Source: Candidatus Saccharimonadales bacterium (GTDB taxonomy: Bacteria; Chloroflexota; Limnocylindria; P2-11E). From it: a DNA stretch of 64,000 nucleotides. The translations under genes and the position numbers were made by a program. This document shows, piece by piece, positions 29,995 to 58,507 of this stretch. Position 1 is the first letter of the stretch. Each line of letters starts with the position of its first letter. The notes below the pieces were generated by a model. It saw only the letters and a program-made list of their open reading frames with translations. It had not been told where the DNA came from and made no database searches. Location: contig DATJHW010000082.1 in NCBI GenBank assembly GCA_035493615.1, positions 766 to 64,765 of the forward strand. The letters are read 5' to 3'.

Positions 29995-30117
29995 GCAACA
30001 TGGACGCTAGGGATGCCGCGCCCGAAGCGGGTATCAGGCCGAGAGAGGGATGCCCTACGCGCTCCCCCGGTCGGGGGAGGAGCCCGGTCCTAGGCCCCCA
30101 TCAAGCGGTCGCTGCGG

Positions 30118-32422: not shown

Positions 32423-32495
32423 GGCTCCTCCCGAGTGTACCAACCGATGTCCGCCCGAACGGGTGACGAGACGGTAGCCGTCTAGCATTCCAGCG

Positions 32496-37787: not shown

Positions 37788-38258
37788 CTAGTTCGGCTGA
37801 GAGTCCTTCTGGCGGTGGCGTTCGATCATCTCGAGCAGCTCGTTCACATCGAAGGGCTTGGCGATGTAGCCGGTCGCGCCGATCTCCTCGGCCCAGCGGC
37901 GCGCGCTCTCGGCGGCGGTCATCACGACGATCGGGTACGTGAGCGCCCGCTCGTGCAACCGCTTCGCGAACGCCCACCCGTCGAGGACCGGCATGCGCAT
38001 GTCGAGGAGGATCAGCGCGGGCGCGACATCATCGAGCGCTTCGAGCGCCTCGGCGCCGTTCGCCGCGGTGCGGACCGCGAGCCCCTCGCTCTCGAGGAAA
38101 TCGCGCAGCATCGCGAGGATCTCCGGATCGTCGTCGACGACGAGGATCGGCCGGGCGGCGACGGCCGCGTCGCCGACGCGGGCGCTCGAGCGCGCGGCTC
38201 GATCCGGCGGAGTCGGTCGATCCGGCGCGAGCGCCTGGAACGCGAGCGTGCTCGTCAA
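37788..38258 (-). CDS. Single-domain response regulator (receiver only)
   Basis: ORF 37788..38369, trimmed to TTG 38258, which forms a TTGA overlap with the upstream kinase stop. PILVVDDDPEIL...LILLDMRMPVLDG...PIVVMTAA...IAKPF. Confidence 0.8.
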   Translation of the reverse strand: MTSTLAFQALAPDRPTPPDRAARSSARVGDAAVAARPILVVDDDPEILAMLRDFLESEGLAVRTAANGAEALEALDDVAPALILLDMRMPVLDGWAFAKRLHERALTYPIVVMTAAESARRWAEEIGATGYIAKPFDVNELLEMIERHRQKDSQPN

Positions 38259-40093
38259 TTCAGCTTTCCTTCTCCGGCATCCGGCAGCGCGACGTGAAAG
38301 GTGCTGCCTTCGCCCACTCTGCTTTCCACCCAGATGCGGCCGCCATGCTCCTGCGCGATGCCGCGGCAAATGTACAGACCGAGACCGATCCCCGCGTAGC
38401 GCCGGGCATCGACGTTCGCCGCCCGGTGGAAGCGCTCGAAGACGAATGGCAGGTCCGTCGCCGGGATACCGATGCCGTGGTCCCGCACGCTGAGCCGGAT
38501 CGCCGTCATGTCGCGCCAGGCGTGCACTTCAACGGGACTGTCCTCGGCGCTGTACTTCAATCCGTTCTCGATGAGGTTGTCGACCAGCTGCTCGATCCGG
38601 CGCGGGTCGAACGTGCCGGGGAGCCGCTCCAGCGCATCGACGACGATCCGCTCCCGCTCGGGGCGTTGGCGCTCCGCAACCTGGCGGACGACGGCACCGA
38701 CGTCGATGAGCTCGCGGTGCACGTCGAGCTTGCCTTCCTCGATGCGCGACGCGTCCAACAGGTCCTCGACCAGCGCCGACAGGCGGCGGGCCTCTCTGGC
38801 GATCCGGGCGATGGCCGGCTGGTGCGCCGCGAGGGCGGGATCGCGGGCGAACCGCAGCTCGAGGATCTGGGCCTGGCCGAGCAACGTCGTGAGCGGGGTC
38901 TTGAGGTCGTGCGCGGCGGCCGAGACGAAATCCTCCTTGAGCTTCGCGGAGTCCTCGAGCGCGCGGACCCGGGCAGCCTCATCGATGAGCGCCCGGCTCT
39001 CGAGGACGACGGCGGCCTGATCGGCGAGCAGCTGCGCCAGCGCCAGGTCGTCGTTCGAGAACACCGGCTGGTGCGCAGCGAAGGCCTCGAGGACGCCGAT
39101 GCGGCGCGAGCCTGCGGTGATCGGCGCGATCAGCACGGGGCCGACGCGGGCCTGCCGGTAGTCGCTCGCATGCTCCGGGTGCGCCCGCGCGGCGTCGGCG
39201 AAGAACTCCGCCCGTTGGGATGCGAACACGCGCGACGCGAGATAGGGGCTGTCCTCGCGGACGATCCGCGGCAGGGCGCCCTGCCCGTCGTTGAACCGGA
39301 GCCCGCCGGCATCCGGGTCGTAGAGCCCGATGGCGGCCCGGGCGCCGAACGACTCTCCCGCTCCGCGCTCGAGCTCGCGGATGATCGCGTCGGTGGTGGG
39401 CAGCCGCGGGAGCGTCCCCGCGCGGGCGAGGAACGCGCGGAGCTCGGGCTCCTGCCAGTAGCGGCGGAGCTGCACCGGTGGCGCGAATCCGAGCAGCCAC
39501 GCTGCCGCGGCGAGCAGCGCGAGCAGCTGCGTGGCCCCGGACACCAACCCGGCCCAGCTTGGGGCCAGCGTGCTCCCTGCGGCGACGAGCACCGCGAGCC
39601 CGAGCAGGCCCATCCCGGCGGCGACGGCCTGCGTGCGGCGCTTCGTCACGCCCGACGAGCGCCGGGCCAGCTGGACGAAGCCGAACGCGACGTACATCGC
39701 GACGGCGCCGAAGTACACGATCAGGAAGAGCGTCGCGGCCGGGTCGATCGGCGAGCCGCTGGTGACGACGATGATCGCGGACGCGATCAGGCCGCCGAGC
39801 GTCGCCGCCCGCACCAGCAGGGGCACGTCGGCGAAGTCGTCGAGCAGCCGCAACATCAGATACGGCAGCGCCATGACCAGGATCGCGGCGATGGAGCTGG
39901 TCACGATGTTGCTCGCGAGGCCCGCGAGCTGCAGGGCCGGGACCTCGAGCACGGCGGCCGCGATCACGCCGAAGAAGACGGCGGTGTCGACGGCGGTGCG
40001 GGTCCGGTCACGCGAGGCGGCGAACGCCACGAGCACGAAGATGCCGACGAACAGCGCGTCGGTGAGGCCTTGAATGAGCTGGAGCGCCGTCAT
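38255..40093 (-). CDS. Sensor histidine kinase (polytopic N-terminus, GAF, HisKA, HATPase_c)
   Basis: About 6-7 TM helices, H-box FVSAAAHDLKTPLT, and G-boxes DHGIGIP / GIGLGLYICRGIAQEHGG. Confidence 0.9.
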   Translation of the reverse strand: MTALQLIQGLTDALFVGIFVLVAFAASRDRTRTAVDTAVFFGVIAAAVLEVPALQLAGLASNIVTSSIAAILVMALPYLMLRLLDDFADVPLLVRAATLGGLIASAIIVVTSGSPIDPAATLFLIVYFGAVAMYVAFGFVQLARRSSGVTKRRTQAVAAGMGLLGLAVLVAAGSTLAPSWAGLVSGATQLLALLAAAAWLLGFAPPVQLRRYWQEPELRAFLARAGTLPRLPTTDAIIRELERGAGESFGARAAIGLYDPDAGGLRFNDGQGALPRIVREDSPYLASRVFASQRAEFFADAARAHPEHASDYRQARVGPVLIAPITAGSRRIGVLEAFAAHQPVFSNDDLALAQLLADQAAVVLESRALIDEAARVRALEDSAKLKEDFVSAAAHDLKTPLTTLLGQAQILELRFARDPALAAHQPAIARIAREARRLSALVEDLLDASRIEEGKLDVHRELIDVGAVVRQVAERQRPERERIVVDALERLPGTFDPRRIEQLVDNLIENGLKYSAEDSPVEVHAWRDMTAIRLSVRDHGIGIPATDLPFVFERFHRAANVDARRYAGIGLGLYICRGIAQEHGGRIWVESRVGEGSTFHVALPDAGEGKLN

Positions 40094-40105
40094 TGGCGCG
40101 GAATG

Positions 40106-42890: not shown

Positions 42891-42895
42891 GGCGG

Positions 42896-42980
42896 TGCCC
42901 GAGGTGGGACTCGAACCCACACGAGGTTTCCCTCATCGGCTCCTAAAACCGACGCGTCTACCGAACTTCGCCACTCGGGC
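42896..42980 (-). tRNA. tRNA-Leu (anticodon UAG), class II with long variable arm; CCA not encoded
   Basis: Hand fold of the minus strand: GCCCGAG-UG-GCGAAGUUCGGUAGACGC-G-UCGGU-UUUAGGA-GCCGA-UGAGGGAAACCUCGU-GUGGG-UUCGAGU-CCCAC-CUCGGGC-A. Confidence 0.9.
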
Positions 42981-43006: not shown

Positions 43007-43900
43007 TCACTTCGACGGAGCGGACGAGCGACGCACGTAATCGTTCCAAATCTCCCGTTTCCGAAGCAGCGACGGTGCGTTTGGATCCGCGTAGAGCCAC
43101 TCGAGAAGGGTGATCGAGTCGTGCTTCCCATACGCAAGGCGGTAGCTCGGGTGCCGATCGGGACGAACGAATGTGCCGATCCATCCGCGGAGGCCGAGGG
43201 CCGCACGTAACTCGGAGTGCAGCCACTCAACGTGAGCACGACTTCCCGAAACGAAATGCACCCGAAGGTATTCGTAGTAGTAGTCCGAACGCCGAGTGGT
43301 ATCGGCTCGCCATACCTTGTTGATGATGCTGCCATCGCCGTCGAGAAGGCCCCGAACAAGATGGGCCATCAGCCCATCTGGAACGTGGAGCGGACCGAGC
43401 GTCAAGCTCTTCCGAGGACTCAACCCCGCATGCTCCAGCCAGCGATAGAGCACGACGTCCTTGATCTGAAAGCGGTAGATCTCGCGACCCAGCCGTGTTC
43501 GACACACGCGGTAGTTGGGCTCGCGGCCTAGGCACCGAAGCAACACCTCGACCAGCTGCGCGTCCTGACTGACAAATGCGATCGCGTGTCCCCGCTCGAT
43601 GAGACAGCCGTCGGTCGCGATGAGTCCCACGGCATAGGCCATCGTCGGCGTCCAGTCGTACGACGACGGCCGGCCCGACATTCCCCGCCAGCGGAGAAGC
43701 TCGGTCGGCGTCCGGCGCTGATACGTGAGGCCCGTGTGTGCCGCCGCGGCACGCGCGATCCGCGCATCCGACGCCGCGGTCTTGCCGCGCGCCCAGCCCT
43801 TGCCGCCACCGGTCATCGCCAAGATATGCGCAGACGGACGACGCCGTGTCCATAGGACCGCCTGATCTTGTGCGCGTTCACGCACCTTCGGATGCATCAC
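43007..43900 (-). CDS. Free-standing double-motif LAGLIDADG homing-endonuclease-like protein (alternative ATG at 43816)
   Basis: Two LAGLIDADG motifs: AYAVGLIATDGCL and HLVRGLLDGDGSI. Codon usage is visibly A/T-richer at third positions than in all neighbouring genes. Confidence 0.75.
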   Translation of the reverse strand: MMHPKVRERAQDQAVLWTRRRPSAHILAMTGGGKGWARGKTAASDARIARAAAAHTGLTYQRRTPTELLRWRGMSGRPSSYDWTPTMAYAVGLIATDGCLIERGHAIAFVSQDAQLVEVLLRCLGREPNYRVCRTRLGREIYRFQIKDVVLYRWLEHAGLSPRKSLTLGPLHVPDGLMAHLVRGLLDGDGSIINKVWRADTTRRSDYYYEYLRVHFVSGSRAHVEWLHSELRAALGLRGWIGTFVRPDRHPSYRLAYGKHDSITLLEWLYADPNAPSLLRKREIWNDYVRRSSAPSK

Positions 43901-44027
43901 TGGTACGGTGAGGAGGTCGCAGCACGGTCCCGATGACCGCGCGTCGCGATGCCGGGCACGGTTTGGGTGTGCCCGTCAGCTCGATCAAGACCCGTCCCAT
44001 GCCGGGCCACCCAGTGAAGGAGCCCGC

Positions 44028-44753
44028 ATGGCAACAGGCGTCACCGTCTCCGACCTCGACCAGAACCGTGTCCTCGCGCCACTCCCGGTGGCGGACCGGA
44101 CCCGGCTCGCGGCCGCGCTCGAGCCGTACCAGTCCGATCACCAGGTGCTGGTCGAGGCGGGGGGCGCGATCACCCACGCCTACTTCCCGTCGGTCGGCAT
44201 GATCTCGGTCGTCGCGGCGCTGAAGAACGGCAGGCGGGCGGAGGTCGCGACGGTCGGACGGGAGGGGATGGCCGGCCTACCGCTGTTCCTCGGTTCGAAG
44301 ACGAGCCTGTACGAGATCGTCTCGCAGGTCGCCGGCAAGGGGCTCCGCATGCCGGCGGCTGTGTTCACCGACGAGGTCACCCGCAGCCCGGCGTTCCGTG
44401 CCAGGCTGCTGCGGTACAGCGAGCTCCGGATGGCCATGCTCGGGCAGACGGCGGCGTGCAACGCGGCGCATCGGATCGGCCCCCGCCTCGCCCGCTGGCT
44501 GCTCCTCAGCCAGGATTCGGTCGACAGCGACCGCTTCGTCCTGACCCACGAGTTCCTCTCGCACATGCTGGGCGCCGAGCGTCCGAGCGTGACCCTCGCA
44601 GCCGGCGCGCTCCAGAAGCGCGACCTGATCACGTACCGCCGCGGCTCCGTCCAGGTCAAGGACCGCCCAGGCCTGGAGCGCGCGGCCTGCGAGTGCTACG
44701 GCATCGTGCGCCGGGAAGCGTCGCGCCTCATGGAGGACGGCCGCCCGGCCTGA
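44028..44753 (+). CDS. Crp/Fnr-family transcriptional regulator
   Basis: ORF 43908..44753, trimmed to ATG 44028 (MATGVTVSDLDQNR...). N-terminal cNMP-binding-like beta-barrel and C-terminal HTH (SHMLGAERPSVTLAAGALQKRDLI). Confidence 0.8.
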   Translation: MATGVTVSDLDQNRVLAPLPVADRTRLAAALEPYQSDHQVLVEAGGAITHAYFPSVGMISVVAALKNGRRAEVATVGREGMAGLPLFLGSKTSLYEIVSQVAGKGLRMPAAVFTDEVTRSPAFRARLLRYSELRMAMLGQTAACNAAHRIGPRLARWLLLSQDSVDSDRFVLTHEFLSHMLGAERPSVTLAAGALQKRDLITYRRGSVQVKDRPGLERAACECYGIVRREASRLMEDGRPA

Positions 44754-44860: not shown

Positions 44861-45556
44861 GTGGTGATCAGCTGGACGCGGCTGCTCGGCACCGCGCGGG
44901 TGACGATCCACACCCAGGACCAGACGCTGGCGGACTCCGTCGCACTCGGCCTGCGCGAGCACGCCCAGCTGTCGGTGGACCGCGGCATCCACCGCCGCGA
45001 GGTGACCGTCCCCCACGTCGTCCTCATCGACCTCGACGGCGCCCACTCCGTCGAGACCCTCCGCGCGTACACCCAGGGAGCGGCACCCGTCCCGACCATC
45101 GCGCTGACCCGGACGGCCGAGCTTCAGCCCCGGCTCGCCGCCTACGCGAACGGCGCCGACGATGTCATCGCGATCCCGGTCACCGGGGCGGAGCTCGCGG
45201 CGCGGATCCGGGCGCTGCTCCGGCGGTCGTACGGGACGCGCCTCTCGTTCGTGCCCACGGTCAAGGTCGGCGACCTCGAGATCGACGTCATGGAGAATCG
45301 CGTGCGCTGCGGCGCCACGGTCCCCGCGCTCACGAACACCGAGCAGGCGATCCTGTTCGTGCTCGCCTCGAATGCCGGTCACACGGTGAGCCGCGAGATG
45401 ATCCGCCGAAGCGTGTGGGGCGCCTCCAATGCCCCGCCCAGCAACATCGTCGATCGACACGTCCGCTCGCTGCGCTCGAAGCTCGGCGACTCGTGGCGCG
45501 CACCCCGATACATCGCGACCGTGCGCCAGGGCGGGTACCGGCTGGTGGCGGCATGA
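44861..45556 (+). CDS. OmpR/PhoB-type DNA-binding regulator with an atypical (probably phosphorylation-independent) receiver domain
   Basis: C-terminal winged helix (LTNTEQAILFVLASNAGHTVSREMI...IVDRHVRSLRSKL...IATVRQGGYRL). The receiver keeps VVLIDLDG but lacks the N-terminal acidic pair (VTIHTQDQ) and the conserved Lys (DVIAIPV instead of DYLxKP). Confidence 0.8.
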   Translation: MVISWTRLLGTARVTIHTQDQTLADSVALGLREHAQLSVDRGIHRREVTVPHVVLIDLDGAHSVETLRAYTQGAAPVPTIALTRTAELQPRLAAYANGADDVIAIPVTGAELAARIRALLRRSYGTRLSFVPTVKVGDLEIDVMENRVRCGATVPALTNTEQAILFVLASNAGHTVSREMIRRSVWGASNAPPSNIVDRHVRSLRSKLGDSWRAPRYIATVRQGGYRLVAA

Positions 45557-45843
45557 GCGGCGACCCGATGAAGCTGGTCAAGTTCGTCTGCGTCGCGACG
45601 AGCCACGCCGCCGGCCGGAGCGACTCCGCGCTCACGATCCACCAGGGGATGTGGGCGTTCTGTCCGGCGGGCGGCGATCAGCGGGATCACGACTGGCAGC
45701 CGAGCGATGGCCTGCCGCTCGCCGACGCGATGCGGTTCAGCCCGCGCGAGGTGCCCGAGCCGCCGCAGAGCGCGACACCTGGCTCGGCGAAGCCCGCGCC
45801 TCCTCGAGCCCCGTCGGCCCGAGGGCGAGCGCGACCGGGCTGA
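45553..45843 (+). CDS. Small Cys/His-motif protein, unknown family (96 aa), paralog of 45912..46130
   Basis: ATG 45553 forms an ATGA overlap with the regulator stop. KLVKFVCVATSH...LTIHQGMWAFC...HDW...SDGLPL core plus a Pro-rich tail. High GC3. Confidence 0.6.
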   Translation: MSGDPMKLVKFVCVATSHAAGRSDSALTIHQGMWAFCPAGGDQRDHDWQPSDGLPLADAMRFSPREVPEPPQSATPGSAKPAPPRAPSARGRARPG

Positions 45844-45911: not shown

Positions 45912-46130
45912 ATGGCTGGTCCGCTGATCGAGTTCATCTGCGTCGCCGCGGCACACAAGCCGCATCACAGTGGCGAGCACGCCAGCACCGTGACCGTGCA
46001 CGAGGGCCGTTGGGCGTACTGCGACTCACCGGCGGAAGCCGGCCACGAGTGGGTCACGAGCGGCGGCATCCCGCTCGAGCTGCTGCGACATCGCCTTCGA
46101 ACGCCAGACCAGGCGACCCGGTCCGCGTAG
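45912..46130 (+). CDS. Small Cys/His-motif protein, unknown family (72 aa), paralog of 45553..45843
   Basis: ATG 45912 behind SD GGGGAGG. PLIEFICVAAAH...VTVHEGRWAYC...HEW...SGGIPL shares the core pattern. Confidence 0.6.
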   Translation: MAGPLIEFICVAAAHKPHHSGEHASTVTVHEGRWAYCDSPAEAGHEWVTSGGIPLELLRHRLRTPDQATRSA

Positions 46131-46270
46131 CGGCCTGACCCCCCAGTGGCCCATTCGTGTCATTGCGGTAACGGAAGGGTCCGAAGCGCAACGGCTGAGC
46201 GACAGAACAGGCTGTTGCCCTCCCTGGGGCACGCCGGCTGCGGCCACCCTCCGCGGGCAGGGAGGATCCC

Positions 46271-46690
46271 TTGAAGAACGAGATCCGCGAGCGACGTGGG
46301 CTTCGTGAGCGCGTGCTCGTCGTCGAAGATGACGCCGACACGCGCCGGATGCTCGTGTCCGCGATCGCCGACGAGGGGTACGAGCCGATCCCGGCGCTGG
46401 ACGGCCAGCACGCTCTACGCACGGCACTTGCCGTCGAGCCGAGCGCGATCGTGCTCGACCTCATGCTTCCCGAAGCGAGCGGCGAAGAGTTCGCGCGTGC
46501 GTACCACGAGCAGAGCCGAGCGGATGCTCCGATCGTCGTCGTGAGCGCGAAGCACGATGCGGCGCGCATCGGGAAGGCGATCGGCGCGGCCGCGGTCCTG
46601 CCGAAGCCGCTCGACATCGCTGACTTCGTCCGGAAGCTGCGATCGACCATCCGCGCGAGCCACGCGAGCCATCGGGCGGCCCCCGCCTAG
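46271..46690 (+). CDS. Single-domain response regulator (receiver only)
   Basis: TTG start behind SD GGGAGGA. RVLVVEDDADTRR...AIVLDLMLPEASG...PIVVVSAK...LPKPL. Confidence 0.85.
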   Translation: MKNEIRERRGLRERVLVVEDDADTRRMLVSAIADEGYEPIPALDGQHALRTALAVEPSAIVLDLMLPEASGEEFARAYHEQSRADAPIVVVSAKHDAARIGKAIGAAAVLPKPLDIADFVRKLRSTIRASHASHRAAPA

Positions 46691-47508
46691 ATCGCGAGCT
46701 CCATTCCCTCACGCGCGACGATCACCTCGAGGCCCGGACCGGCTTCATCGGCGGAGTGCTGGGCCTCGATGCCGATCCGGTCGAGCGCGTCGTCGGTGCG
46801 GTCCGGATCGTGGTGATACAGGATCAACCGCTTCGCCTTCGCGCGCTTGGCCACGTCGAGCGCGGCGGCCACGGTGGAGTGGCCCCAGCCGGCCTTGAAG
46901 TCGCTATCGAGGAACTGGCCGTCGTGGATGAGCGCGTCCGCGTTCTTCGCCAGCTCGACGACCGGATTCACCTGCCCGCTGAACGGGTCTTCGGTATCGG
47001 TCGCGTAGACGAGCGACCGGCCGTCGGCCTCGATGCGGTAGGCGAGGGCGGGCGCCGGGTGGAAGATCGTCGCCGCGCTGACCTGATAGCCGCCCACGTT
47101 GCGCTTCGATCCGCTCTCGAACTCATGCACCTCGAGGTGGACCGGCAGGCCGTCGAGATCGACCGGAAAGAAGGGATCGTCCATCCCGAGCCCGAGGAGC
47201 TCCCTGAGTGGCCGGTGCTGGATCGGGCCGTAGAGCCGGAGCGTGCTCTTCGGGTCGAAGGCAGGCCGGAAGAACGGGATGCCCTGGATGTGATCCCAGT
47301 GCAGGTGCGACAGGAGAAGGTCAACGGTCAGCGGCGACGTGCCGTTGAGGTTCAGTCCGAGCTCGCGCAGGCCGGTGCCGGCGTCGAGCACCAGGAGGTG
47401 GCCCGCGACGTCGCGCACCTCGACGCAGGCCGTGTTCCCGCCGTAGCGGACGGTGCGCTGGCCCGGCGTCGGGATCGAGCCGCGGGTCCCCCAGAACCGG
47501 ACCTTCAC
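46687..47508 (-). CDS. MBL-fold metallo-hydrolase (paralog of the hydrolase domain of 36467..37786)
   Basis: MKVRFWGTRGSIPTPGQRTVRYGGNTACVEV...LLSHLHWDHIQGIPFF (HxHxDH)...LILYHHDPDR. 4-nt overlap with the upstream HD-GYP gene. Confidence 0.85.
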   Translation of the reverse strand: MKVRFWGTRGSIPTPGQRTVRYGGNTACVEVRDVAGHLLVLDAGTGLRELGLNLNGTSPLTVDLLLSHLHWDHIQGIPFFRPAFDPKSTLRLYGPIQHRPLRELLGLGMDDPFFPVDLDGLPVHLEVHEFESGSKRNVGGYQVSAATIFHPAPALAYRIEADGRSLVYATDTEDPFSGQVNPVVELAKNADALIHDGQFLDSDFKAGWGHSTVAAALDVAKRAKAKRLILYHHDPDRTDDALDRIGIEAQHSADEAGPGLEVIVAREGMELAI

Positions 47509-48818
47509 GATCGCGCCGCCGGCACCTTGCGCGGTTTGCGATCGCGTTCGGACAGGCCGCCGCTCGCGGCTTCGGCGAGGCTGCCCATCCCTTCGTCTCC
47601 GGCCTTCGGCCAGGTGCCCTTCAGCTCGTCGACCGTTCGCTCGAGCTCGGGCAGCGCGCGATGGACGGCGGCCACGACCGCGGGGTCGAGGTGGTCGCCG
47701 GCCATCCCGTCCATGAGCTCGAGCGTGCGCTCGATCGAGTAGGCCGGCTTGTAGTAGCGGGGCGCGGTGAGGGCGTCGAACACGTCCGCCGCGGCGACGA
47801 TGCGCGCGCCGACGAGGATCTCCCCACCGCGCAGGCCCTTCGGATAGCCCGTGCCGTCCATCCGCTCGTGGTGCTGGGCCGCGATCTCGGGGACCTCGCG
47901 CATGTCGGACGGGAAGTCGAGGTAGCCGAGGAACTCCGCCGTCTTCTCCGCGTGAGCCTTCATGTACGCGAACTCCGCGTCGTCCAGCTTGCCCGGCTTC
48001 TGGAGGAAGCGGTCGCGCACCGCGATCTTCCCGTAATCGTGGAGCAGCGCCGCGGCCTGCAGGCGCTCCAGCTCCTCGACGGAGAGTCCCGCCTCGACGC
48101 CGATGACCGCCGCGTAGCGCGTCACGCGCTTGCTGTGGCCGGCGGTCTGCTGATCCCGGGCGTCCACGGTCGTGGCGAGCGTCTCGATGAGCGACAGCCA
48201 GAGGCGCTTCTGCGCCGTCACGAGCTGCGCGTTCTCCACCGCGACCGCGGCCGACGACGCGAGCGCGCGGAGCGTCGTCTCGTCCTCGGTCGTGAAGCTG
48301 CCGTCCGTCTTGTTGACCGCCTGGAAGACGCCGATGACCGCGCCGTCGTGGTCGGTCATCGCGAGGGTCAGCAGGTTGCGCGTCCGGAAGCCCGTGCGCT
48401 TGTCGCTCTCGTCGTTGAACCGCGGATCCGCGTACGCGTCGGGGATGTTGATCGTCTCGCCGGTCTGCGCGACGGTGCCGGCGATACCAACGCCGATCGG
48501 GAACCGCAGCTCTCCCACGCCGCTGCCCGTGGCCACCCGCGACCAGAGCTCCTGACGGTCCCGGTCGACGATGTAGATCGTCGCGCGCTCAGAGCCGACC
48601 ATCGTCACCGTCGCCTCGGCGATGAGCCGCAGAAGCGCGTCGAGGTTGGTCACGGTCATGAGCCGCCGGGTGACGTCGAGCAACATGTCGAGATCGCGCC
48701 GGCCGGCGCCGCGACGCCGCTCGGCCGCGCGCCGTTCGCGGGACTCCTCGCTTCGCCGGTCCATCCGATCGGGACTGCGGCGCTCGCCGATCCGCCGCTC
48801 GAACGGCTGCCGGCTCAC
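47505..48818 (-). CDS. GAF (NKFDE-type) plus HD-GYP domain phosphodiesterase
   Basis: GAF with AVNKTDGSFTTEDE. HD-GYP: LLHDYGKIAV...QHHERMDGTGYPKGL. Confidence 0.85.
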   Translation of the reverse strand: MSRQPFERRIGERRSPDRMDRRSEESRERRAAERRRGAGRRDLDMLLDVTRRLMTVTNLDALLRLIAEATVTMVGSERATIYIVDRDRQELWSRVATGSGVGELRFPIGVGIAGTVAQTGETINIPDAYADPRFNDESDKRTGFRTRNLLTLAMTDHDGAVIGVFQAVNKTDGSFTTEDETTLRALASSAAVAVENAQLVTAQKRLWLSLIETLATTVDARDQQTAGHSKRVTRYAAVIGVEAGLSVEELERLQAAALLHDYGKIAVRDRFLQKPGKLDDAEFAYMKAHAEKTAEFLGYLDFPSDMREVPEIAAQHHERMDGTGYPKGLRGGEILVGARIVAAADVFDALTAPRYYKPAYSIERTLELMDGMAGDHLDPAVVAAVHRALPELERTVDELKGTWPKAGDEGMGSLAEAASGGLSERDRKPRKVPAARS

Positions 48819-49312
48819 GACGCCTCCAACGGGATCTGGGCCAGCACCGGGCTCACGCTCTCAGCGATCCGCTCGAGGAGCATCTGGTCGCGCCGCTCGA
48901 ACGGGCCGCTGCGCTTGTTCAGCACCTGCAGCACCCCGATCACCGACCGGCCGGCCTGATCCCACACCGGGACGACCAGCATGTTCAGCGTCCGGTAGCC
49001 GCTGCGCAGGTCGACGTTCCGGTCGAAGCGCGGATCGGCATAGGCGTCCGGCACGTTGATCGTCTCGCCGGTCATGGCGGCCTGACCCGCGATACCGGTG
49101 CCGAGGGGCAAGCGGATCTCGAGCGCCGTCCGGGACGCGATCCGTGACCACAGCTCCTGTTTCGCCTGGTCGACGAAATACACCGTGCAGCGTTCGGCAT
49201 CGCAGGCCTGCGCGCAGAGGTCGATGAGCCCGCGGAGATAGGCCTCGCGGTCGCGCTGCACCGCGAGATGGGTCAGCTTCATGAGCACGAACGCGACCTT
49301 GTCGTCGATCAT
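48815..49312 (-). CDS. Stand-alone GAF domain protein (NKFDE-like motif)
   Basis: 165 aa. LPLGTGIAGQAAMTGETINVPDAYADPRF...VLNKRSGPFERRDQ. 4-nt overlap with the downstream gene. Confidence 0.8.
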   Translation of the reverse strand: MIDDKVAFVLMKLTHLAVQRDREAYLRGLIDLCAQACDAERCTVYFVDQAKQELWSRIASRTALEIRLPLGTGIAGQAAMTGETINVPDAYADPRFDRNVDLRSGYRTLNMLVVPVWDQAGRSVIGVLQVLNKRSGPFERRDQMLLERIAESVSPVLAQIPLEAS

Positions 49313-49324
49313 CGCCGGACCAAC

Positions 49325-51325
49325 CTAGTGATACCCCGCGACGGCGGCGGCGCCGATCGGGCGCTCCGGCGCGGGTGCGGGATTCGGGCTCGCGATGGAT
49401 CCGAGGCTGTTCACCTGGTAGCACCGTACCGGCTCTGCCCGACCCCTGACCTGAACCGCGCCGAGGTCGACCGCGACGACGTCGGCGCCGAGCTCGGCGA
49501 GGGTCTCCGCGCTGACCGCGACCTGGTCACGCCGCGCGATGTCGTTCGACGTGAGTCGAGACGCGACGTTCGCCGTGTCGCCGATCACCGTGTACTCCAT
49601 GCGGCCGAGCGCGCCGAGAAAGCCCGCGACGACCGGGCCGGTGTTGATGCCGAAGCCGAACGAGACGTCCGGACCCCCGGTGCCGCGCTCGCCGACGATC
49701 CAGCGCTGGATCTCGAGCGCCGCCTGCACCGCCTTGCGCGCCGGGTCCGCGACGGGGAGCGGCGCGCCCCAGATCACCATGATGTTGTCACCGTTGAATT
49801 TGTTCACGGTGCCTTCGTAGCGGTTGACGATGTCCACGATCCCTTCGAAATAACGATTCAGCGTGTCGAGCAGTACGCCGGGCGTCATCCCTTCGCTCAA
49901 TCCGGTGAAGCCGCGGATGTCACCGAACAGTACGGTGACCCGCTTCTCCTCACCGCCCAGGGCGAGCTTCCCGCTCTCTTCGATGTCCATGATCGTGCGC
50001 GCGATCGACGGCGTGACGAACCGGCCGAACGTCGTCTGCGTGCGCGCGACGGCGCGCTGCTCCTCGACCAGCAGATAGCCGAGCGCGACCACCCACCAGA
50101 ACGCCGTCGGGACGAGATAGCCAAAGGACGCGACCGCGATCGGGCCTTGTCCGACCGGGCCGTCCGTCGCCACGGAGAAGAACAGGTATCGCGCATAGCC
50201 GTAGGTCACGAGGGCGGCCAGCGCGGCGAGGAAGCCATAGAGCCGGAACGCGGCGACGAGCAGGATCCCGCCGAACGTCGCGATGACGAGCTCCACGAGC
50301 GTGACCGGGAAGCTCTCGCGGGTCTCCGGGTAGCGGTTCGTGAAGATCGAGGCGGCGGTGTTCGCCCAGATCTCGACACCCCACATCTTGAGCGCGCCGC
50401 TGTTCGGCACCGGATAGTTGTCGGGTACCGCGGAGAGCGTGTGCGCGCCGATGAGGATCGTGCGGTTCGCGATGAGGTCGCGCGACACCGTGCCCGCGAT
50501 GAGGTCGGCCAGCGAGATCACGCAGAACCTGCCCGGGTCCGCGCAGGGCGCGCTGCCCTGCGTCGCGGTGAGGTCTTGCGAGGGCAGGGCGGCGTAGTAG
50601 ATCGGCATGTGGCCGCTCCGATCGATGGGCATCACGCGGTCCGCGGTGCCTGCGCGTCCGGGCAGCACCAGCGTGTCGCCGCGCCGCTCGAGCGTGGTCT
50701 CGTCCCCGGCGACCTGCTTGCCGGCGGCCAGGGAGCGCGCGGTCGCGACGAGGGACAGCGAGTAGTAGCGGCCGCTCGGCGTGTCGATCGCGAGCTCGGC
50801 CCTGCGGACGCGGCCGTCCTCGTCGGGGCGGACGTTCACCGAGCCGACGCCGGCGGCTGCCTGTCGCAACATCGGGATCGGAAGCTGCTCGGCGCTGTAC
50901 CGGACGGCGCCGTCACCGTCGATGTGCGAGCCGGCGCCCTCCATCGCGAGGATGACGTTCCCCGAGTCCTTGATCGCGGACGCGAGCGCCCGATCCTGGT
51001 CCGGATTCGGCGACTCGTCGTAGAACCCGATGTCGAACGCGACGACCCGGGGGTCCAGCGGCCTCAACGCCGCGAGCAGATCCACCCACGCCTGGCGCGG
51101 GAGCGGGTAGGTGCCGTATCGGCGGACGGCCTGGTCGTCGAGCGCGATCACCGTCACCTGGTTCGAGAGCTTGCCTGGCGCGTAGGTGATGAACGTGTCG
51201 TACGTGACCGCCTGCAGGGTCGAGTCGAGGAGATGCGAGTCGAACGCGAGCGCGCCGAGGAGGATGCCGAGGGCCGCGAGGGCGGCGAGGATGACGCGCT
51301 GGCGCTGAAGCCGCTTCGAGAGCAC
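49325..51325 (-). CDS. CHASE2-sensor class III nucleotidyl cyclase (adenylate-cyclase-like Lys/Thr specificity pair)
   Basis: N-terminal CHASE2 (VTVIALDDQAVRRYGTYPLPR...VVAFDIGF), TM helices, and a catalytic domain VTVLFGDIRGFTGLSE...VNKFNGDNIMVIWG...EYTVIGDTANVASRL. Confidence 0.85.
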   Translation of the reverse strand: MLSKRLQRQRVILAALAALGILLGALAFDSHLLDSTLQAVTYDTFITYAPGKLSNQVTVIALDDQAVRRYGTYPLPRQAWVDLLAALRPLDPRVVAFDIGFYDESPNPDQDRALASAIKDSGNVILAMEGAGSHIDGDGAVRYSAEQLPIPMLRQAAAGVGSVNVRPDEDGRVRRAELAIDTPSGRYYSLSLVATARSLAAGKQVAGDETTLERRGDTLVLPGRAGTADRVMPIDRSGHMPIYYAALPSQDLTATQGSAPCADPGRFCVISLADLIAGTVSRDLIANRTILIGAHTLSAVPDNYPVPNSGALKMWGVEIWANTAASIFTNRYPETRESFPVTLVELVIATFGGILLVAAFRLYGFLAALAALVTYGYARYLFFSVATDGPVGQGPIAVASFGYLVPTAFWWVVALGYLLVEEQRAVARTQTTFGRFVTPSIARTIMDIEESGKLALGGEEKRVTVLFGDIRGFTGLSEGMTPGVLLDTLNRYFEGIVDIVNRYEGTVNKFNGDNIMVIWGAPLPVADPARKAVQAALEIQRWIVGERGTGGPDVSFGFGINTGPVVAGFLGALGRMEYTVIGDTANVASRLTSNDIARRDQVAVSAETLAELGADVVAVDLGAVQVRGRAEPVRCYQVNSLGSIASPNPAPAPERPIGAAAVAGYH

Positions 51326-51376
51326 CCCGTCCCCCTTCGGCCCGAGCCTCGTCGGAGGCGCTCCGGCGCGGTCATG

Positions 51377-52432
51377 CTAGCGGCTGGCCGCCCTCCGGAG
51401 CACGTCTTTCAGCACCGCGATCGAACGACCGTAATCGGCGAGCGCGAGCCGCTCGATCGGCGTGTGGTCGTAGCGCGCATCGCCCGGGCCATACGCGACC
51501 ATCGGACACGCCCACGCCGGGAGCAGCACGTTCATGTCGCTCGTGCCGGTCTTCTCCTTGAACGCCGCGTGGCCGCCGATGCCCGCGATCGCGCGCACGA
51601 ACGAGCTCGCGACCGGCGTCGTGCGCGAGACTCGCGCCGGCTCTTCCGAGGCGATCCGCTCGATCGTGACCTCGGCGTCGCCGTCGTGCTGCTCGGCGGC
51701 CGCCCGCGCCGCCGCCTCGAGCGCATCCGTCGACGTCCCAGAGGGCACTCGGTACCCGACGCGCAGGTCCGCGCGCTCGACGAGGCCATCCCCGGCCGCA
51801 GAGCGCATCCCCTCGAGCCGGCAATCGAGCCGCGGGGTGGTCGCGGCGTCCTCCCGCATCCGCGCCCAGAGCGCGAGGGCCTCCTCGGCGATCGTCGGCC
51901 CGGGTGACGCCCCGTGCCGCGCATCGCGCGAGAGCGACACGCCGAGGACGAGCCGGCCCTTGTACGCCACGGTCACGCCGTCCCAACCCGACGGCTCGCC
52001 GATGACGCACCAGTCCGGCGCGGCGAGCGTCGCGCGGAAGCGCGCGCCCTTGCTCGTCGGCGACTCCTCCTCCACCGCGCCCACGACCGTCACGCGCACG
52101 CCGGGGATGGGCACCGTGGCAGCCGCGACGAACGCGGCGAGCGGGCCCTTCGCGTCGACGGCGCCGCGGCCGATCAGCTCGCCGTCCTCGACGCGCACCG
52201 GGATCTCGCCCGGCACGGTGTCGATGTGCCCGAGCAGCACGACGTGCACGGGGCCGTCGCCGATCTCACCGACCGCGTTCCCCACCGCGTCGACGGACGC
52301 GCGGAATCCGCGCTCGGCCATCCGCGCCACGAGCCATTCCACCGCGTCGCTTTCCTGACGCGAGACCGACGGGATCGCGACCAGCCCGCCGACCAGGGCA
52401 ACGTCATCGGGTGCGAGCTCGACCTCGTTCAC
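51377..52432 (-). CDS. lysK: [LysW]-lysine/ornithine hydrolase (M20 deacylase, LysK)
   Basis: ArgE/LysK-like M20 protein ([10 protein letters not shown]...GRGAVDAKG). GTGA overlap with lysJ. Last gene of the lysW cluster. Confidence 0.8.
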
Positions 52433-53589
52433 TCCGCGAGCGCGGCGCGGGTCGCGTCGATCACGGCGTCGATCTGCGCGGCGGAGATCACGAGCGGCGG
52501 GAGGTATCGCACCACCGTCGGGCCTGCGCCGAGCGCCAGTACGCCGTTCTCTTGCAGCCTCTTGAGGGTCGGGCCGGCGTTCTCCTTGAGCTCGACGCCC
52601 TGGATCAGCCCGAGGCCGCGGACCTCACGGATCTTCGGCGACTCGATCGAGACCAGGCCGTCGTGCAGCTGGCGGCCCCGCTCGGCCGCGGCGGCGGCGA
52701 GACCGAGCCGCAGGTGCTCGTCGATGGTGGCGACCGCCGCCGCGCAGGCGAGCGGGTTCCCGCCGAAGGTCGTGGAGTGCGACCGCTTCGGCAGCTCGCC
52801 GAGGGCGCGCGAGAACGCGATCGCACCCATCGGGATGCCGCCCGCGATCGACTTCGCGAGGCAGAGCATGTCCGGCACGATCCCGAACTGCTCGATCGCG
52901 AACATCGTCCCCGTTCGGCCGAAGCCCGTCTGCACCTCGTCCACGACGAGCAGCACGCCGCGCTCGCGGCAGAGTCGCGCGGCCTCGGTCACGAACTCGC
53001 GCGTCGCCGGCCGCACGCCACCCTCACCCTGCACGAGCTCCACGATGAACGCCGAGGTCTCGTCCGTGATCGCGCCGTCGAGCGCCTCGATCTTGTTGAA
53101 CGGGATGTGGCTGAACCCCTCGAGCAGCGGGCCGAACAGCTCGCGGTACTCGGGCCCCCAGGTCGCCGAGAGCGCGCCCATCGTCTTGCCGTGGAAGCCG
53201 CGCATCGTCGCGACCACCTTCGTGCGCTTCGTCGCGAGGCGCGCGAACTTCAGCGCGCCCTCGACCGCCTCGGTGCCGCTGTTGCAGAGGAAGACGCGGT
53301 CGAGTGCCGGGGGCAGGATCCGGGCGAGCCGGTCGTACAGGTCGGCGCGGCGGTCGTTGTAGAAGAGCTCGGTGCAGAACGACAGCGTCCGGGCCTGCGC
53401 CGCGAGCGCGTCCGCGACGGCGGCGTTCGCGTGCCCAAGATTCCCGGAGCCCTGGCCGCCGACGCAGTCGATGAACTGGTGGCCGGCGTCGTCCCACACG
53501 AGCGCGCCGTCACCCCGCACGAGCGCGACGTCGCGCTTCTGGTAGAGGCCCGAGGTGTGCGCGGCCTCCCGGCGGATCGTGTCAGCCAT
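52429..53589 (-). CDS. lysJ: [LysW]-aminoadipate semialdehyde / acetylornithine-type class III aminotransferase (LysJ); alternative GTG start at 53607
   Basis: Class III aminotransferase ([15 protein letters not shown]...[13 protein letters not shown]...). ATG 53589 overlaps the lysZ stop by 8 nt. Confidence 0.85.
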
Positions 53590-56434: not shown

Positions 56435-58420
56435 TTAGCCGAGCCGACCCCGCGCGCGGGCCTTGTCCTGATACATCCGCTCGTCCGCTTTCGCGATCAG
56501 CTGGTCGGTCAGCAGGCCGTCCTCGGGGAAGGCGGCGATCCCGAACGACACGCGCGGCAGCGCATGCGGCATCCCGCCCCACATGTACGTCTGCTCCGGC
56601 AGCTCGTGGGTCAGACGCATCACCAGCGAGCGGGCCTGATCGAGCGCGGTGCGTGGGAGGAGCAGCACGAATTCGTCACCACCGAAGCGCGCGACCACAT
56701 CCTCGGTCCGCGCCGTCGTACGGAGGGTCGTCGCGACCGAACGGAGGACGGAATCGCCGACCAGGTGGCCGGCGGTGTCGTTGACCGCCTTCAGGCCGTC
56801 GACGTCACAGAGGATCACGCAGAACGCGTCCCCGTGACGGCGCGCCTCGGCCGTCTCGGCCTCGAGCCGCTCCACGAGGACGCGCCGGTTCGTGAGGCCG
56901 GTGAGCGGATCGTGGCTCGCCAGGCGCCGGCTCTCGCCGAGCAGCCGCGCGTTCGAGATCGCGATGGCGGCCTGCGCGGCATACAGCCGGAACATCCGCT
57001 GGGTCTCGTTGCCCCAGTGGCGCGGCCGCCCGGAGTACAGCGACATCGTGCCGACGAGCTCGCCATGCGCGATGAGCGGCAGCGCGATCGCGGACATGAC
57101 GATGCCGTGCAGCTTCGGATTCGACTGGGGATGGGTCGAGTAGTCGGTCGCGACGGCGGCCTCGCGCGTACGGACCGATTCGAGCGCGATGCCCATGAGC
57201 GGGCCTCCCGGGTCGTCGCGCAGCTGGGGCATCTTCGACCGGTTGATCGCGCGGACGATGAGCGTCCCATCGGGGTCGGCGAGCGCGATCATCGCGCCGT
57301 CGGTCTGGGTGAGCCGCGTGACGTTGTCGACCGCGAGCCGGGCGAGATCGTCAAGCGAGATCTCGCCGGCGGTGGCGAGACCGACGTCGTACAGGGCGGC
57401 GAACTGAGCGGCGCGCCGCCGCTCGCGCTGGCCAAGGCGCCAGTTCGCGTACAGCGCGAGAGCGGCACGGATCGCGAGGAGCACGATCGTGATCGCGATG
57501 GCCGCGGCCACGAGCGGATCGGTCGCGGTCTCGCGGTCGAGCTGGCTCACGACGAGGATCGCGGCCGCCGCGATCGAGACCGCGCCGGGCAGCACCATCC
57601 GCGACACCTGCACCGCTTCCGTCGGCACGAGGGGGACCGCCTCGCCCGTCGCGTCCTCGGCCCACTGCCAGCCGGCGACACCGATGGCCAGGATGCCCAC
57701 CATCCAGAACAGATCGACGACCGTCCCAGGCTCGAACGACTGGTGCATGTACTCGGGCAGCCACACCACGAAACCGATGGCATTCAGGGCGATGCCGATG
57801 AGCAGCGAGAAGTGCGCGCGGCGGGTCTGCAGTGGAGGGAGGCCCCAGAACATCGAGAGCGCCGCACCGGTGGCGGCGACGTAGAGGATCGGATAGGCGA
57901 ACGCGACGGCGATGGCCGCGGGCTGGCGGGCGATCTCGGGCGCGAACAGACCTTCGACGTACAGCGCGACACCGGCGAGCATGGTGAGGACCGCCGCGCT
58001 CACGTCGAGAACGAGCGCATAGACGGCGAGCCGCTGCTCGTGCCCGGCGAGGAACGCGCCGCACCCGATGACGAAGAGGAGCGCGGCGATGAGGAACGCG
58101 AGATCCGCAGGCGCGGGCGGTGCCGCGGCGATCCCGGCGACGAGGGACGCATCGGCGACGAGCTGGCCGATCGCCCACGCGGTCGCGCCGAGGAACGTGC
58201 AGATCCAAGCGAGGCGCTCACGGGTCTGCGGTACGAAGGCGGCGCGTCCGGTGCCGACCACGGCGCCGAGCGCGAAGCCGGTCAGTCCGAGGTCGGCGAT
58301 GAGCTGCCGCAGCCCGCCCGGCCCCGCGAAGAGCTCCGCGAGCCACACGACCGCCGCGCCCGCGAGGCCGGCATAGAGTCCCTGCTGCGACCGCGATCGC
58401 GCGCTGAACATCGCAAGCAC
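56435..58420 (-). CDS. Polytopic membrane GAF-GGDEF diguanylate cyclase
   Basis: About 10 N-terminal TM helices, a GAF-like region, and GGDEF: DPLTGLTNRRVL...DVDGLKAVND..GH..GD...RFGGDEFVLLLP. Confidence 0.85.
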   Translation of the reverse strand: MLAMFSARSRSQQGLYAGLAGAAVVWLAELFAGPGGLRQLIADLGLTGFALGAVVGTGRAAFVPQTRERLAWICTFLGATAWAIGQLVADASLVAGIAAAPPAPADLAFLIAALLFVIGCGAFLAGHEQRLAVYALVLDVSAAVLTMLAGVALYVEGLFAPEIARQPAAIAVAFAYPILYVAATGAALSMFWGLPPLQTRRAHFSLLIGIALNAIGFVVWLPEYMHQSFEPGTVVDLFWMVGILAIGVAGWQWAEDATGEAVPLVPTEAVQVSRMVLPGAVSIAAAAILVVSQLDRETATDPLVAAAIAITIVLLAIRAALALYANWRLGQRERRRAAQFAALYDVGLATAGEISLDDLARLAVDNVTRLTQTDGAMIALADPDGTLIVRAINRSKMPQLRDDPGGPLMGIALESVRTREAAVATDYSTHPQSNPKLHGIVMSAIALPLIAHGELVGTMSLYSGRPRHWGNETQRMFRLYAAQAAIAISNARLLGESRRLASHDPLTGLTNRRVLVERLEAETAEARRHGDAFCVILCDVDGLKAVNDTAGHLVGDSVLRSVATTLRTTARTEDVVARFGGDEFVLLLPRTALDQARSLVMRLTHELPEQTYMWGGMPHALPRVSFGIAAFPEDGLLTDQLIAKADERMYQDKARARGRLG

Positions 58421-58507
58421 GCTAGGCCCGCTCGCGGCCGGGCAGAAGGGACCAACTCGTCCTGACCCGGGTGCGGTACCCGGACGGGGCGGCCTCCCCC
58501 GCCGGTG

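Follow-up and report, generated by a model that had tools for sequence, protein, structure and literature searches.

A conserved Candidatus Limnocylindria operon predicted to couple cyclic AMP to cyclic di-GMP

Four adjacent genes in a 64,000-nucleotide stretch of DNA from a soil bacterium, a Candidatus Saccharimonadales bacterium (GTDB lineage Bacteria; Chloroflexota; Limnocylindria; P2-11E; assembly GCA_035493615.1, contig DATJHW010000082.1, forward-strand positions 766 to 64,765), hereafter the window, form an operon that is conserved in Candidatus Limnocylindria and that probably couples cyclic AMP (cAMP) to cyclic di-GMP (c-di-GMP), with a signal from outside the cell lowering c-di-GMP by way of a cAMP pulse. 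In order of transcription the genes, here called g1 to g4, encode a CHASE2 receptor joined to a predicted adenylate cyclase, a stand-alone GAF domain of the type found in receptors of cyclic nucleoside monophosphates (cNMPs), a GAF-HD-GYP protein predicted to degrade c-di-GMP, and a hydrolase of the metallo-β-lactamase (MBL) fold that is a candidate eraser of cAMP. Cross-talk between the two messengers is known only from a few single enzymes (Tlr0485, Bd1971, Lcd1 and GacB), and the locus described here, together with a counterpart in the Aquificota, suggests that a whole circuit of receptor, writer, gated c-di-GMP eraser and messenger eraser can be packaged as one transcription unit. It would also give a CHASE2 receptor a defined output in an uncultured soil phylum; should the predictions fail, the locus would be a neighbourhood of ordinary signalling genes.

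Gene order and conservation of the operon

The open reading frames (ORFs) of the window gave four co-directional minus-strand genes at exactly the coordinates (Table 1) proposed in a first-pass annotation that had been made from the sequence alone. The junctions were confirmed as well, with a 12-nt gap between g1 and g2 and 4-nt GTGA stop/start overlaps at both g2/g3 and g3/g4, and the g3 start codon is preceded, at a distance of 5 nt, by a GGAGG. For comparison across genomes, an alignment of g4 relatives served to scan one genome per GTDB species, and the resulting 80 loci, assigned to Chloroflexota, Myxococcota, Acidobacteriota, Actinomycetota and Ignavibacteria, were annotated with the window's own domains. 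The order lysK, g1, g2, g3, g4 was kept in 12 Limnocylindria loci with enough flanking DNA, lysK standing upstream of the cassette in every complete locus, and four shorter, partial contigs agree with it; this recurrence argues that the arrangement is not due to chance. Identity of g4 to the window protein is about 69-86% in the complete loci and 96% in one partial locus, and the GTGA overlap of g3 and g4 is retained across the cassette-bearing genomes. In alignments of 13-20 orthologues per window protein, the catalytic and pocket residues were invariant or nearly so. Based on the conserved synteny and the overlapping stop and start codons, we concluded that g1-g4 are a single operon, as the first-pass annotation had held, and that its order is conserved in related genomes.

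Two features of the locus speak against a unit that stands by itself. The g1 gene starts 51 nt past the end of lysK, with a Shine-Dalgarno-like box (AAGGGGGA) before it, and given this short distance the cassette may be co-transcribed with the lysine genes. A scan of positions 46000-52600 for promoters and terminators found nothing above the shuffled background.

Cyclase, GAF and HD-GYP domains of g1 to g3

Searches with hidden Markov models bore out each of the domain assignments made earlier (CHASE2, Guanylate_cyc, GAF, HD-GYP and Lactamase_B_2), and the motifs quoted for them are all present: VLFGDIRGFT, VNKFNGD and EYTVIGDTANVASRL in g1, HDYGK and HHERMDGTGYP in g3, and the MBL motif HxHxDH, which reads SHLHWDH in g4. 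For g1, Pfam matched CHASE2 (PF05226) at 2e-38 (132.8 bits, cutoff 26.3) and Guanylate_cyc (PF00211) at 5e-23 (82 bits, cutoff 21.9). The hydropathy profile has hydrophobic segments at residues 8-33, 338-375 and 396-420, which fit a layout of one transmembrane helix, a CHASE2 domain of about 310 residues outside the cell, three further transmembrane helices and a cyclase inside. The best matches in the PDB were Cya2 and CyaB of P. aeruginosa. HMMER alignments put the Lys of VNKFNGD and the Thr of EYTVIG opposite their counterparts in P. aeruginosa CyaB (3R5G), and this Lys stands where the guanylate cyclase Cya2 (2W01) has Glu. The metal Asp residues (FGDIRGFT, NGD), the Lys (VNKF), the Thr (EYT) and the Asn/Arg (ANVASR/ANVASRL) are invariant in the window protein and 13 orthologues. 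Since the Lys/Thr pair aligns with that of CyaB and does not vary among the orthologues, a class IIIb adenylate cyclase pattern is indicated, in keeping with the earlier reading, and g1 is predicted to make cAMP. CHASE2 adenylate cyclases are already known from Sinorhizobium meliloti, where CyaD1, CyaD2 and CyaK share the CHASE2-transmembrane-class III cyclase architecture with g1 and produce cAMP upon an external cue (PMC13001267); the likeness is one of architecture, and their output, unlike that proposed for g1, goes to the Crp-type regulator Clr and to no c-di-GMP enzyme.

For the GAF domains of g2 and g3, the first-pass annotation had pointed to a shared NK-x4-F-x3-D(E/Q) signature. The signature is present in both, although the two strings had been swapped between the genes: VLNKRSGPFERRDQ belongs to g2 and AVNKTDGSFTTEDE to g3. 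Written as the NKFDE motif, it reads NK-TDGS-F-TTE-DE in g3 and NK-RSGP-F-ERR-DQ in g2, Q replacing E, and it is kept in the orthologues. The g3 domain also has SERATIY, RVAT and SDKRTGFRT, and in g2 the R-x-T, Ile, Asp and NK..F..DQ positions are conserved in the window and 14 orthologues. The further claim, that some nine other GAF-like regions of the window lack the signature, held with one correction. There are nine (four in the composite HD-GYP-GGDEF protein, three in the GAFx3 histidine kinase, and one each in the GAF histidine kinase and the GAF-GGDEF protein of Table 1), they share 11-27% identity with the g2 and g3 domains, and in the alignment the NK pair is missing from all nine; most of them, however, carry the F-x3-(D/E)(D/E) half of NKFDE, which is generic in this window. 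Discrimination comes solely from the NK half combined with the pocket segment GIAG..TG..IN[IV]PDAYADPRF..D..[TS]G[FY]RT.

Ranking against the PDB placed both domains among cNMP receptors. The best match of g2 was the tandem GAF of the cAMP-binding CyaB2 (3.8e-40), and the g3 GAF matched the GAFs of CyaB2, PDE10A, PDE5 and PDE2A at 1e-22 to 1e-41. Per domain, the top matches of the GAF parts were all cNMP GAFs at 1e-17 to 1e-26 (CyaB2 at 1e-17 to 1e-19 and PDE10A GAF-B at 3e-26, with PDE5 and PDE2A GAF-B also at the top); PmGH, the GAF-HD-GYP protein discussed below, was also high, and the non-cNMP GAFs Nlh1, DevS and PtsP reached only 1e-4 to 1e-7. In a joint alignment, the two domains are 41% identical to each other, and each is 41% identical to PDE2A GAF-B.

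The NKFDE motif marks cNMP GAFs without touching the ligand (PMC4411481, PMC11977230), which lessens its weight as evidence for cAMP binding, so we mapped instead the cAMP contacts of CyaB2 GAFb, namely R291, T293, I308, D356 and N359 (PMC4411481). R291, which contacts adenine N1, T293, which contacts N6/N7, and D356 are the same residues in g3 and g2; I308 is V in g3 and I in g2; and N359 is T in g3 and S in g2, a T/S as in CyaB2 GAFa and PDE2A. Four of the five contacts are thus identical or conservative in both proteins. In the same alignment the cGMP-binding PDE2A shows Ile where the Arg would stand and, beside the hydrophobic contact, an Asp; neither feature occurs in g2 or g3. We take this Asp of PDE2A to be a determinant of cGMP. 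The pocket therefore looks cAMP-like, as the Arg is kept and the PDE2A Ile and Asp are absent. Together, the PDB ranking and the CyaB2 contacts support the earlier assignment of both GAFs to the cNMP type, and they are predicted to bind cAMP.

A different messenger for these GAFs, cGMP or another small ligand, with the adjacent cyclase reflecting co-regulation only, is in our view improbable. GAF ligands are diverse and NKFDE does not contact them (PMC11977230), isolated CyaB2 GAFb binds cGMP besides cAMP (PMC4411481), and the ligand of the PmGH GAF was never identified (10.1101/2021.11.05.467447). Against this stand the Lys/Thr pair typical of adenylate cyclases in g1, which lacks the Glu of guanylate cyclases, a pocket that keeps the counterparts of CyaB2 Arg291 and Thr293, the contacts of adenine N1, N6 and N7 (PMC4411481), without the PDE2A Asp, and the fusion of the closest GAF relatives to cyclases and cNMP_binding domains.

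Those relatives came from an exhaustive search with g2 of 1.8 billion cluster representatives, which returned 16,170 matches. Among the best 150, which were the ones examined, nearly all are multi-GAF proteins, including at least 27 tandem-GAF cyclases of the CyaB1/2 type and three GAF-GAF(-GAF)-HD-GYP proteins; a cNMP_binding domain accompanies the GAF in 8 of 75 short relatives. Stand-alone relatives make up only three clusters of the best 150, all at least 57% identical to g2 and presumably Limnocylindria orthologues, and because multi-GAF proteins rank first in such a search, weaker stand-alone GAFs may have been missed. The CyaB1 and CyaB2 cyclases of Anabaena and the mammalian phosphodiesterases PDE2/5/10 resemble g2 and g3 in the NK..F..D(E/Q) signature, in the pocket segment and in having R, T, I/V and D at the CyaB2 contact positions. 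In those proteins, two GAFs stand in tandem on one chain with a cyclase or a class I phosphodiesterase, whereas here one GAF is separate (165 aa) and the other is fused to HD-GYP. Tandem GAFs sharpen cAMP selectivity in CyaB2 (PMC4411481), and a role of the stand-alone g2 as buffer or partner is a conjecture.

For g3, the closest full-length match was the crystallised PmGH of Persephonella marina (4MCW/4MDZ/4ME4; PMC4159591), against which it aligned colinearly (4MCW, E 3.4e-72) with 40% identity over 341 aa spanning the GAF, the alpha5 helix and HD-GYP. Besides HD_5, Pfam also reported HD. The metal ligands H228, H260/D261, H289, the HH of QHHERMDGTGYP and the D of DVFDAL, plus the GYP, are present and conserved, and seven of the eight metal ligands of PmGH are kept. 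The eighth detracts somewhat from the picture: the third-metal ligand E185 of PmGH is Q224 in g3 and Gln in all orthologues. The trinuclear iron signature E/D-T-G (PmGH 185-187) is accordingly replaced by Q-T-A in g3 and its orthologues, which suggests a binuclear or variant metal site. The g3 segment P-R-Y-Y-K aligns with R314/K317 of PmGH, the RxxK motif, and Rxx(K/R) marks HD-GYP enzymes specific for c-di-GMP, as RxxQ/N marks those specific for 3'3'-cGAMP (cyclic GMP-AMP; bioRxiv 10.1101/600031). Because RxxK is present, c-di-GMP is the likely substrate. The catalytic motifs and RxxK thus support the earlier call of a catalytically competent HD-GYP, predicted to act as a c-di-GMP phosphodiesterase.

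That g3 instead degrades cGAMP, or serves as a non-catalytic scaffold, is very unlikely. The cGAMP enzyme V-cGAP3 is a strong PDB match to its HD-GYP domain, and some HD-GYP proteins, such as Bd1817, are inactive (PMC4159591); yet HD, HHE and GYP are all present together with the R-x-x-K that cGAMP-specific enzymes replace by RxxQ/N, and PmGH, the closest match over the full length, is an active c-di-GMP phosphodiesterase.

A cAMP-gated HD-GYP has a precedent in Tlr0485 of Thermosynechococcus vulcanus (Enomoto et al. 2020), in which c-di-GMP hydrolysis requires cAMP on the GAF (10.1101/2021.11.05.467447, PMC8846402, PMC10124867). Tlr0485 has, like g3, a single GAF followed by HD-GYP (PMC10124867), so that the likeness is one of architecture and proposed logic. 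It belongs to another phylum, and the accounts consulted describe neither a dedicated cyclase nor a stand-alone GAF or MBL gene alongside it. Other cAMP-controlled enzymes are Bd1971, with a cNMP-binding domain and EAL (PMC6717892), the GAF-Hypr GGDEF protein GacB (bioRxiv 10.1101/600031) and the GAF-GGDEF protein Lcd1 of Leptospira. In all three, cAMP on a sensor domain directly controls a cyclic-dinucleotide enzyme, as proposed for g3; they differ in having EAL or GGDEF outputs or a cNMP-binding-domain sensor fold, and the sources consulted describe none of them as sharing an operon with a cyclase of its own and a presumed cAMP phosphodiesterase. To the first-pass annotation, no characterised system with the composition of this locus was known. 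As far as these accounts of Tlr0485 go, the statement holds for the packaging, while the core mechanism is not new, since a cAMP-activated GAF-HD-GYP has already been characterised there; what is new is that one conserved operon unites a dedicated CHASE2 cyclase, a GAF standing alone and an MBL hydrolase.

The MBL hydrolase and the clusters around PmGH

In g4, a Lactamase_B_2 protein (PF12706, 80 bits), the HxHxDH/H/D/H site is intact, with SHLHWDH, H150, D171 and H232/H233 invariant. A [T/S]HxHxDH signature defines the atypical class-II phosphodiesterases Rv1339, CpdA (Cgl2508) and YhfI (PMC9293780), which resemble g4 further in belonging to PF12706 and in size, and YhfI is among its top structural neighbours. 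The signature does not discriminate, however, because RNase Z fits it too. Against the NCBIfam model for cNMP phosphodiesterases, NF041851 (cyc_nuc_deg_phdiest), g4 aligned over its full length with only 70 bits, where the cutoff is 400, and g4 orthologues from five other phyla scored 48-72 bits and gave no bridge to the equivalog. RNase Z models scored it about equally, but with partial alignment only (TIGR02651 aligned in two partial stretches with 79 bits, the cutoff being 293), and the 273-aa protein has no insert corresponding to the flexible arm (exosite) of RNase Z. The Pfam scan at E<=1 gave no match to PF02112 (PDEase_II). An AlphaFold2 model of g4, with a mean predicted local distance difference test score (pLDDT) of 81, had RNase Z, BA1088, YhfI, ELAC1, yeast PDE1 and Apyc1 as Foldseek neighbours in the PDB, with template-modelling (TM) scores of 0.57-0.73: 0.63-0.73 for YhfI, 0.62-0.73 for RNase Z, 0.65-0.71 for BA1088 and 0.57-0.64 for Apyc1 (7U2R/7T28). 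On these scores RNase Z, YhfI, PDE1 and Apyc1 cannot be told apart. Sequence and predicted structure thus make g4 a probable nucleotide phosphodiesterase without pointing to one substrate, and the low NF041851 score, the RNase Z matches, the missing PF02112 match and the unresolved TM-scores all count against reading g4 as a cAMP phosphodiesterase. Precomputed annotations list the Apyc1 family (PF23023) for g4 and its relatives (P0001-P0120), but the local Pfam scan at E<=1 did not return it.

The genomic context of the family, for which a search returned at least about 8000 proteins at E<=1e-10, is more suggestive. At 24 of 26 Myxococcota loci, a g4 orthologue (42-46% identity) is followed after 72-267 nt by a GAF-sigma54 activator-HTH_8 gene, and these 24 GAFs have R-x-[TS] in 24, D..TG[FY].T in 23 and N[KR]..F..DE in 16. 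Such a pair could be a cNMP-responsive enhancer-binding protein with its hydrolase. One Terriglobia locus (L056:11362-13248) has a PilZ-GAF-PAS-class III cyclase, a 629-residue ORF read stop to stop, adjoining the MBL orthologue; its joining of a c-di-GMP receptor domain to a cyclase makes it a candidate for cross-talk that runs the other way. We set aside an apparent MBL-GAF fusion (L042:9812-11407, 'uncultured delta proteobacterium', grouped with the Myxococcota loci), whose GAF tail looks frameshifted and which is probably an assembly error; its 'MFD' isolate name we assume to mean a long-read metagenome-assembled genome (MAG).

Similar support comes from the Aquificota, where the parts set recurs independently around PmGH. 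In Persephonella (L083:6001-10657), the order is GAF-HD-GYP (PmGH), FecR-domain protein, CHASE2-cyclase and MBL, with junction overlaps of 11 and 20 nt and one 2-nt gap, and the cyclase is colinear with g1 at 27% identity with Lys/Thr kept. A second Persephonella-like contig (L090) has the same order, again with a Lys/Thr cyclase. In Desulfurobacterium atlanticum (L088), a CHASE2-cyclase, a FecR gene and an MBL gene overlapping that of the GAF-HD-GYP occur in this order, and a further Desulfurobacterium contig (L091) has FecR and then MBL followed by GAF-HD-GYP. The MBLs of L083 and L088 matched PDEase_II (PF02112) in the local Pfam scan with 45.8 and 47.6 bits (cutoff 23.7), and those of L090 and L091 have precomputed PDEase_II matches. 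They are non-orthologous to g4, with 27% identity over 78 residues. If the slot is that of a cAMP eraser, one would expect what is seen here, namely two unrelated MBLs occupying it next to a GAF-HD-GYP of the cAMP type and a CHASE2 adenylate cyclase. The PmGH cluster thus has the same parts set as the window, including a CHASE2 cyclase with Lys/Thr and an MBL; it differs in gene order, in a FecR-domain gene that takes the place of the stand-alone GAF, in an MBL of the class-II phosphodiesterase type, and in PmGH having E185 where g3 has Gln. On the other side of the ledger, ten PmGH relatives could be placed on a contig, and six of these lack a neighbouring cyclase or MBL gene. The Galperin and Chou HD-GYP survey (10.1101/2021.11.05.467447) describes the PmGH GAF ligand as unidentified, and a literature search found no paper linking PmGH to a neighbouring cyclase. 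The context of the PmGH cluster points to cAMP as this ligand, and the shared parts set makes the question directly testable.

The main alternative for g4 is that g1-g3 alone are the cAMP-to-c-di-GMP module and g4 is a housekeeping RNase-Z-like phosphodiesterase of RNA or another diester, an ancestral neighbour of lysK. Two Limnocylindria loci (L006:5851-7874 and L020:4673-6873) speak for it, since in both lysK abuts the MBL gene and g1-g3 are lacking, a clean presence/absence polymorphism of the g1-g3 block; because L006 nests within the cassette-bearing clade of a neighbour-joining tree, at least one clean loss of g1-g3 with the MBL kept is indicated. Elsewhere the orthologues have unrelated neighbours, metabolic genes (anthranilate synthase, glutamate dehydrogenase) in Acidobacteriota and Actinomycetota and the endoribonuclease YbeY in Ignavibacteria, and RNase Z models and structures match as well as those of cNMP phosphodiesterases. 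This context is ambiguous, because a general cAMP phosphodiesterase and a housekeeping enzyme for another substrate would both behave so, and a housekeeping cAMP phosphodiesterase would also be expected to outlast the loss of one cyclase. The alternative accounts less well for the retained g3/g4 overlap, for the family's place beside cNMP-type GAF regulators in the Myxococcota and a GAF-cyclase in Terriglobia, for the non-orthologous class-II phosphodiesterase in the same slot at the four Aquificota loci, and for the absent arm and merely partial RNase Z alignments, and we consider it unlikely, if worth keeping in mind. The eraser role proposed in the first-pass annotation thus gains from the co-occurrence with cNMP-type GAF genes in Myxococcota, but the weak NF041851 score, the equal closeness of RNase Z, the survival of g4 without g1-g3 and its unrelated neighbours elsewhere leave it something we infer. 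We lean by a little towards g4 being a cAMP phosphodiesterase, which the context supports and does not prove.

Two further alternatives concern the same gene. The first would have g4 clear linear pGpG or another c-di-GMP breakdown product downstream of HD-GYP, in place of cAMP. Some HD-GYP enzymes do stop at pGpG (10.1101/2021.11.05.467447), the third-metal ligand corresponding to E185 is missing in g3, and the fold of g4 is that of an RNase-Z-like phosphodiesterase. We nevertheless give it a low probability: the same MBL family is linked to GAF-sigma54 genes in Myxococcota in a context without a c-di-GMP enzyme, and the two Aquificota MBLs scanned locally fall in the Pfam family of class II cAMP phosphodiesterases. 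The second, an anti-phage island of cyclic-nucleotide defence or counter-defence resembling Pycsar, we rejected as scarcely credible. PADLOC reported generic PycC matches for g1 (best 65.7 bits), and the precomputed Pfam annotation assigns g4 to the Apyc1 family. The PycC similarity is, however, only that of class III cyclases in general, no effector gene is present, g2 and g4 have no PADLOC match, the chromosomal position by lysK is fixed across species, the Lys/Thr pair of g1 points to ATP as substrate, and Apyc1 is neither in the local Pfam scan nor close in structure (TM 0.57-0.64).

Proposed circuit and surroundings in the window

In the circuit that we favour, an extracytoplasmic cue would act on the CHASE2 domain of g1, and its class IIIb (Lys/Thr) cyclase would make cAMP. 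Bound in the g3 GAF pocket, cAMP would switch HD-GYP on by way of the GAF-alpha5 dimer helix that PmGH shows (PMC4159591), with activation in the same direction as in Tlr0485. The HD-GYP domain would then hydrolyse c-di-GMP made by GGDEF enzymes such as those of the window, and c-di-GMP would fall; g4 would most likely hydrolyse cAMP and so reset the switch. The g2 protein, translationally coupled to g3, may titrate cAMP and set a threshold, or may dock on g3 as a second GAF in trans, supplying what nearly all g2 relatives hold in cis. A broader version of this reading, which we offer as speculative and on the whole doubtful, takes the sensor cyclase, cAMP-gated HD-GYP and cAMP eraser as a portable module present in at least two phyla (Chloroflexota and Aquificota) with unrelated MBLs recruited twice, the g4 family as a large unrecognised clade of cNMP phosphodiesterases, g2 as the trans subunit of a split tandem-GAF sensor, and cAMP as the ligand of the PmGH GAF.

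Table 1. Positions of the operon genes, their domains and other features; positions are those of the window unless a locus is named.
Feature	Position	Strand	Basis or remarks
g1, CHASE2-class IIIb adenylate cyclase, putative writer	49325..51325	-	666 aa; Pfam CHASE2 + Guanylate_cyc
g1 CHASE2 extracytoplasmic sensor domain, residues 24-354	50264..51256	-	Pfam PF05226 + hydrophobic flanks
g1 class III cyclase catalytic domain, residues 461-639	49409..49945	-	catalytic residues invariant, window + 13 orthologues
g2, stand-alone cNMP-type GAF, putative reader/buffer/partner	48815..49312	-	165 aa; Pfam GAF 2.7e-19
g3, GAF-HD-GYP, predicted c-di-GMP phosphodiesterase, reader + effector	47505..48818	-	437 aa; PDB 4MCW (PmGH)
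g3 GAF domain, residues 58-194	48237..48647	-	Pfam GAF 1.2e-19
g3 HD-GYP domain, residues 214-381	47676..48179	-	Pfam HD_5 5e-38
g4, RNase-Z-like MBL phosphodiesterase, putative cAMP eraser	46687..47508	-	273 aa; Pfam Lactamase_B_2 1.8e-22
lysK ([LysW]-lysine hydrolase), upstream neighbour	51377..52432	-	NCBIfam NF003367 373 bits, cutoff 363
Single-domain response regulator, convergent	46271..46690	+	Pfam Response_reg 1.8e-14; stop overlaps g4 stop
Crp-like regulator, possible further cAMP reader	43908..44753	+	Pfam weak cNMP_binding + HTH_Crp_2
Composite HD-GYP-GGDEF protein	26368-30006	-	1213-residue ORF (stop-to-stop); 3 GAFs, HD-GYP (HD_5), fourth GAF, GGDEF
GAFx3 histidine kinase	32478-34931	+	
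Response regulator	35190-35693	+	
GAF histidine kinase	38258-40105	-	
GAF-GGDEF protein	56438-58507	-	
g4-type MBL + GAF-sigma54 activator, Myxococcota loci L024-L081	example L028:10001-12378		

The window has a G+C content of about 70% and is most closely related to MAGs named Candidatus Limnocylindria or Chloroflexota. Elsewhere in it the c-di-GMP machinery comprises two GGDEF proteins and one further HD-GYP, and the GGDEF proteins imply that the organism makes c-di-GMP. The composite protein of Table 1 appears to be an enzyme that both degrades and makes c-di-GMP, and there is no NK-type domain among its GAFs. With the two histidine kinases and the GAF-GGDEF protein, GAF signalling proteins are unusually dense in the window.

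The Crp-like regulator, which lies 2 kb away, was weighed as a member of the module and set aside; it is present only in L001, L002 and L005, and since its conservation does not reach beyond the closest relatives we treated it as context. Between an OmpR-like regulator and the convergent response regulator lie two paralogous small ORFs of 96 and 72 aa (about 45553-45843 and 45912-46130, both on the plus strand), which share the motif F[VI]CVA..H...T[IV]H[QE]G.WA[FY]C...H.W, have no Pfam match, and are called as genes on L001 and L002 too. A LAGLIDADG-like ORF (43007-43900, minus strand; weak Pfam match) stands directly upstream of a tRNA-Leu on the same strand (42894-42980).

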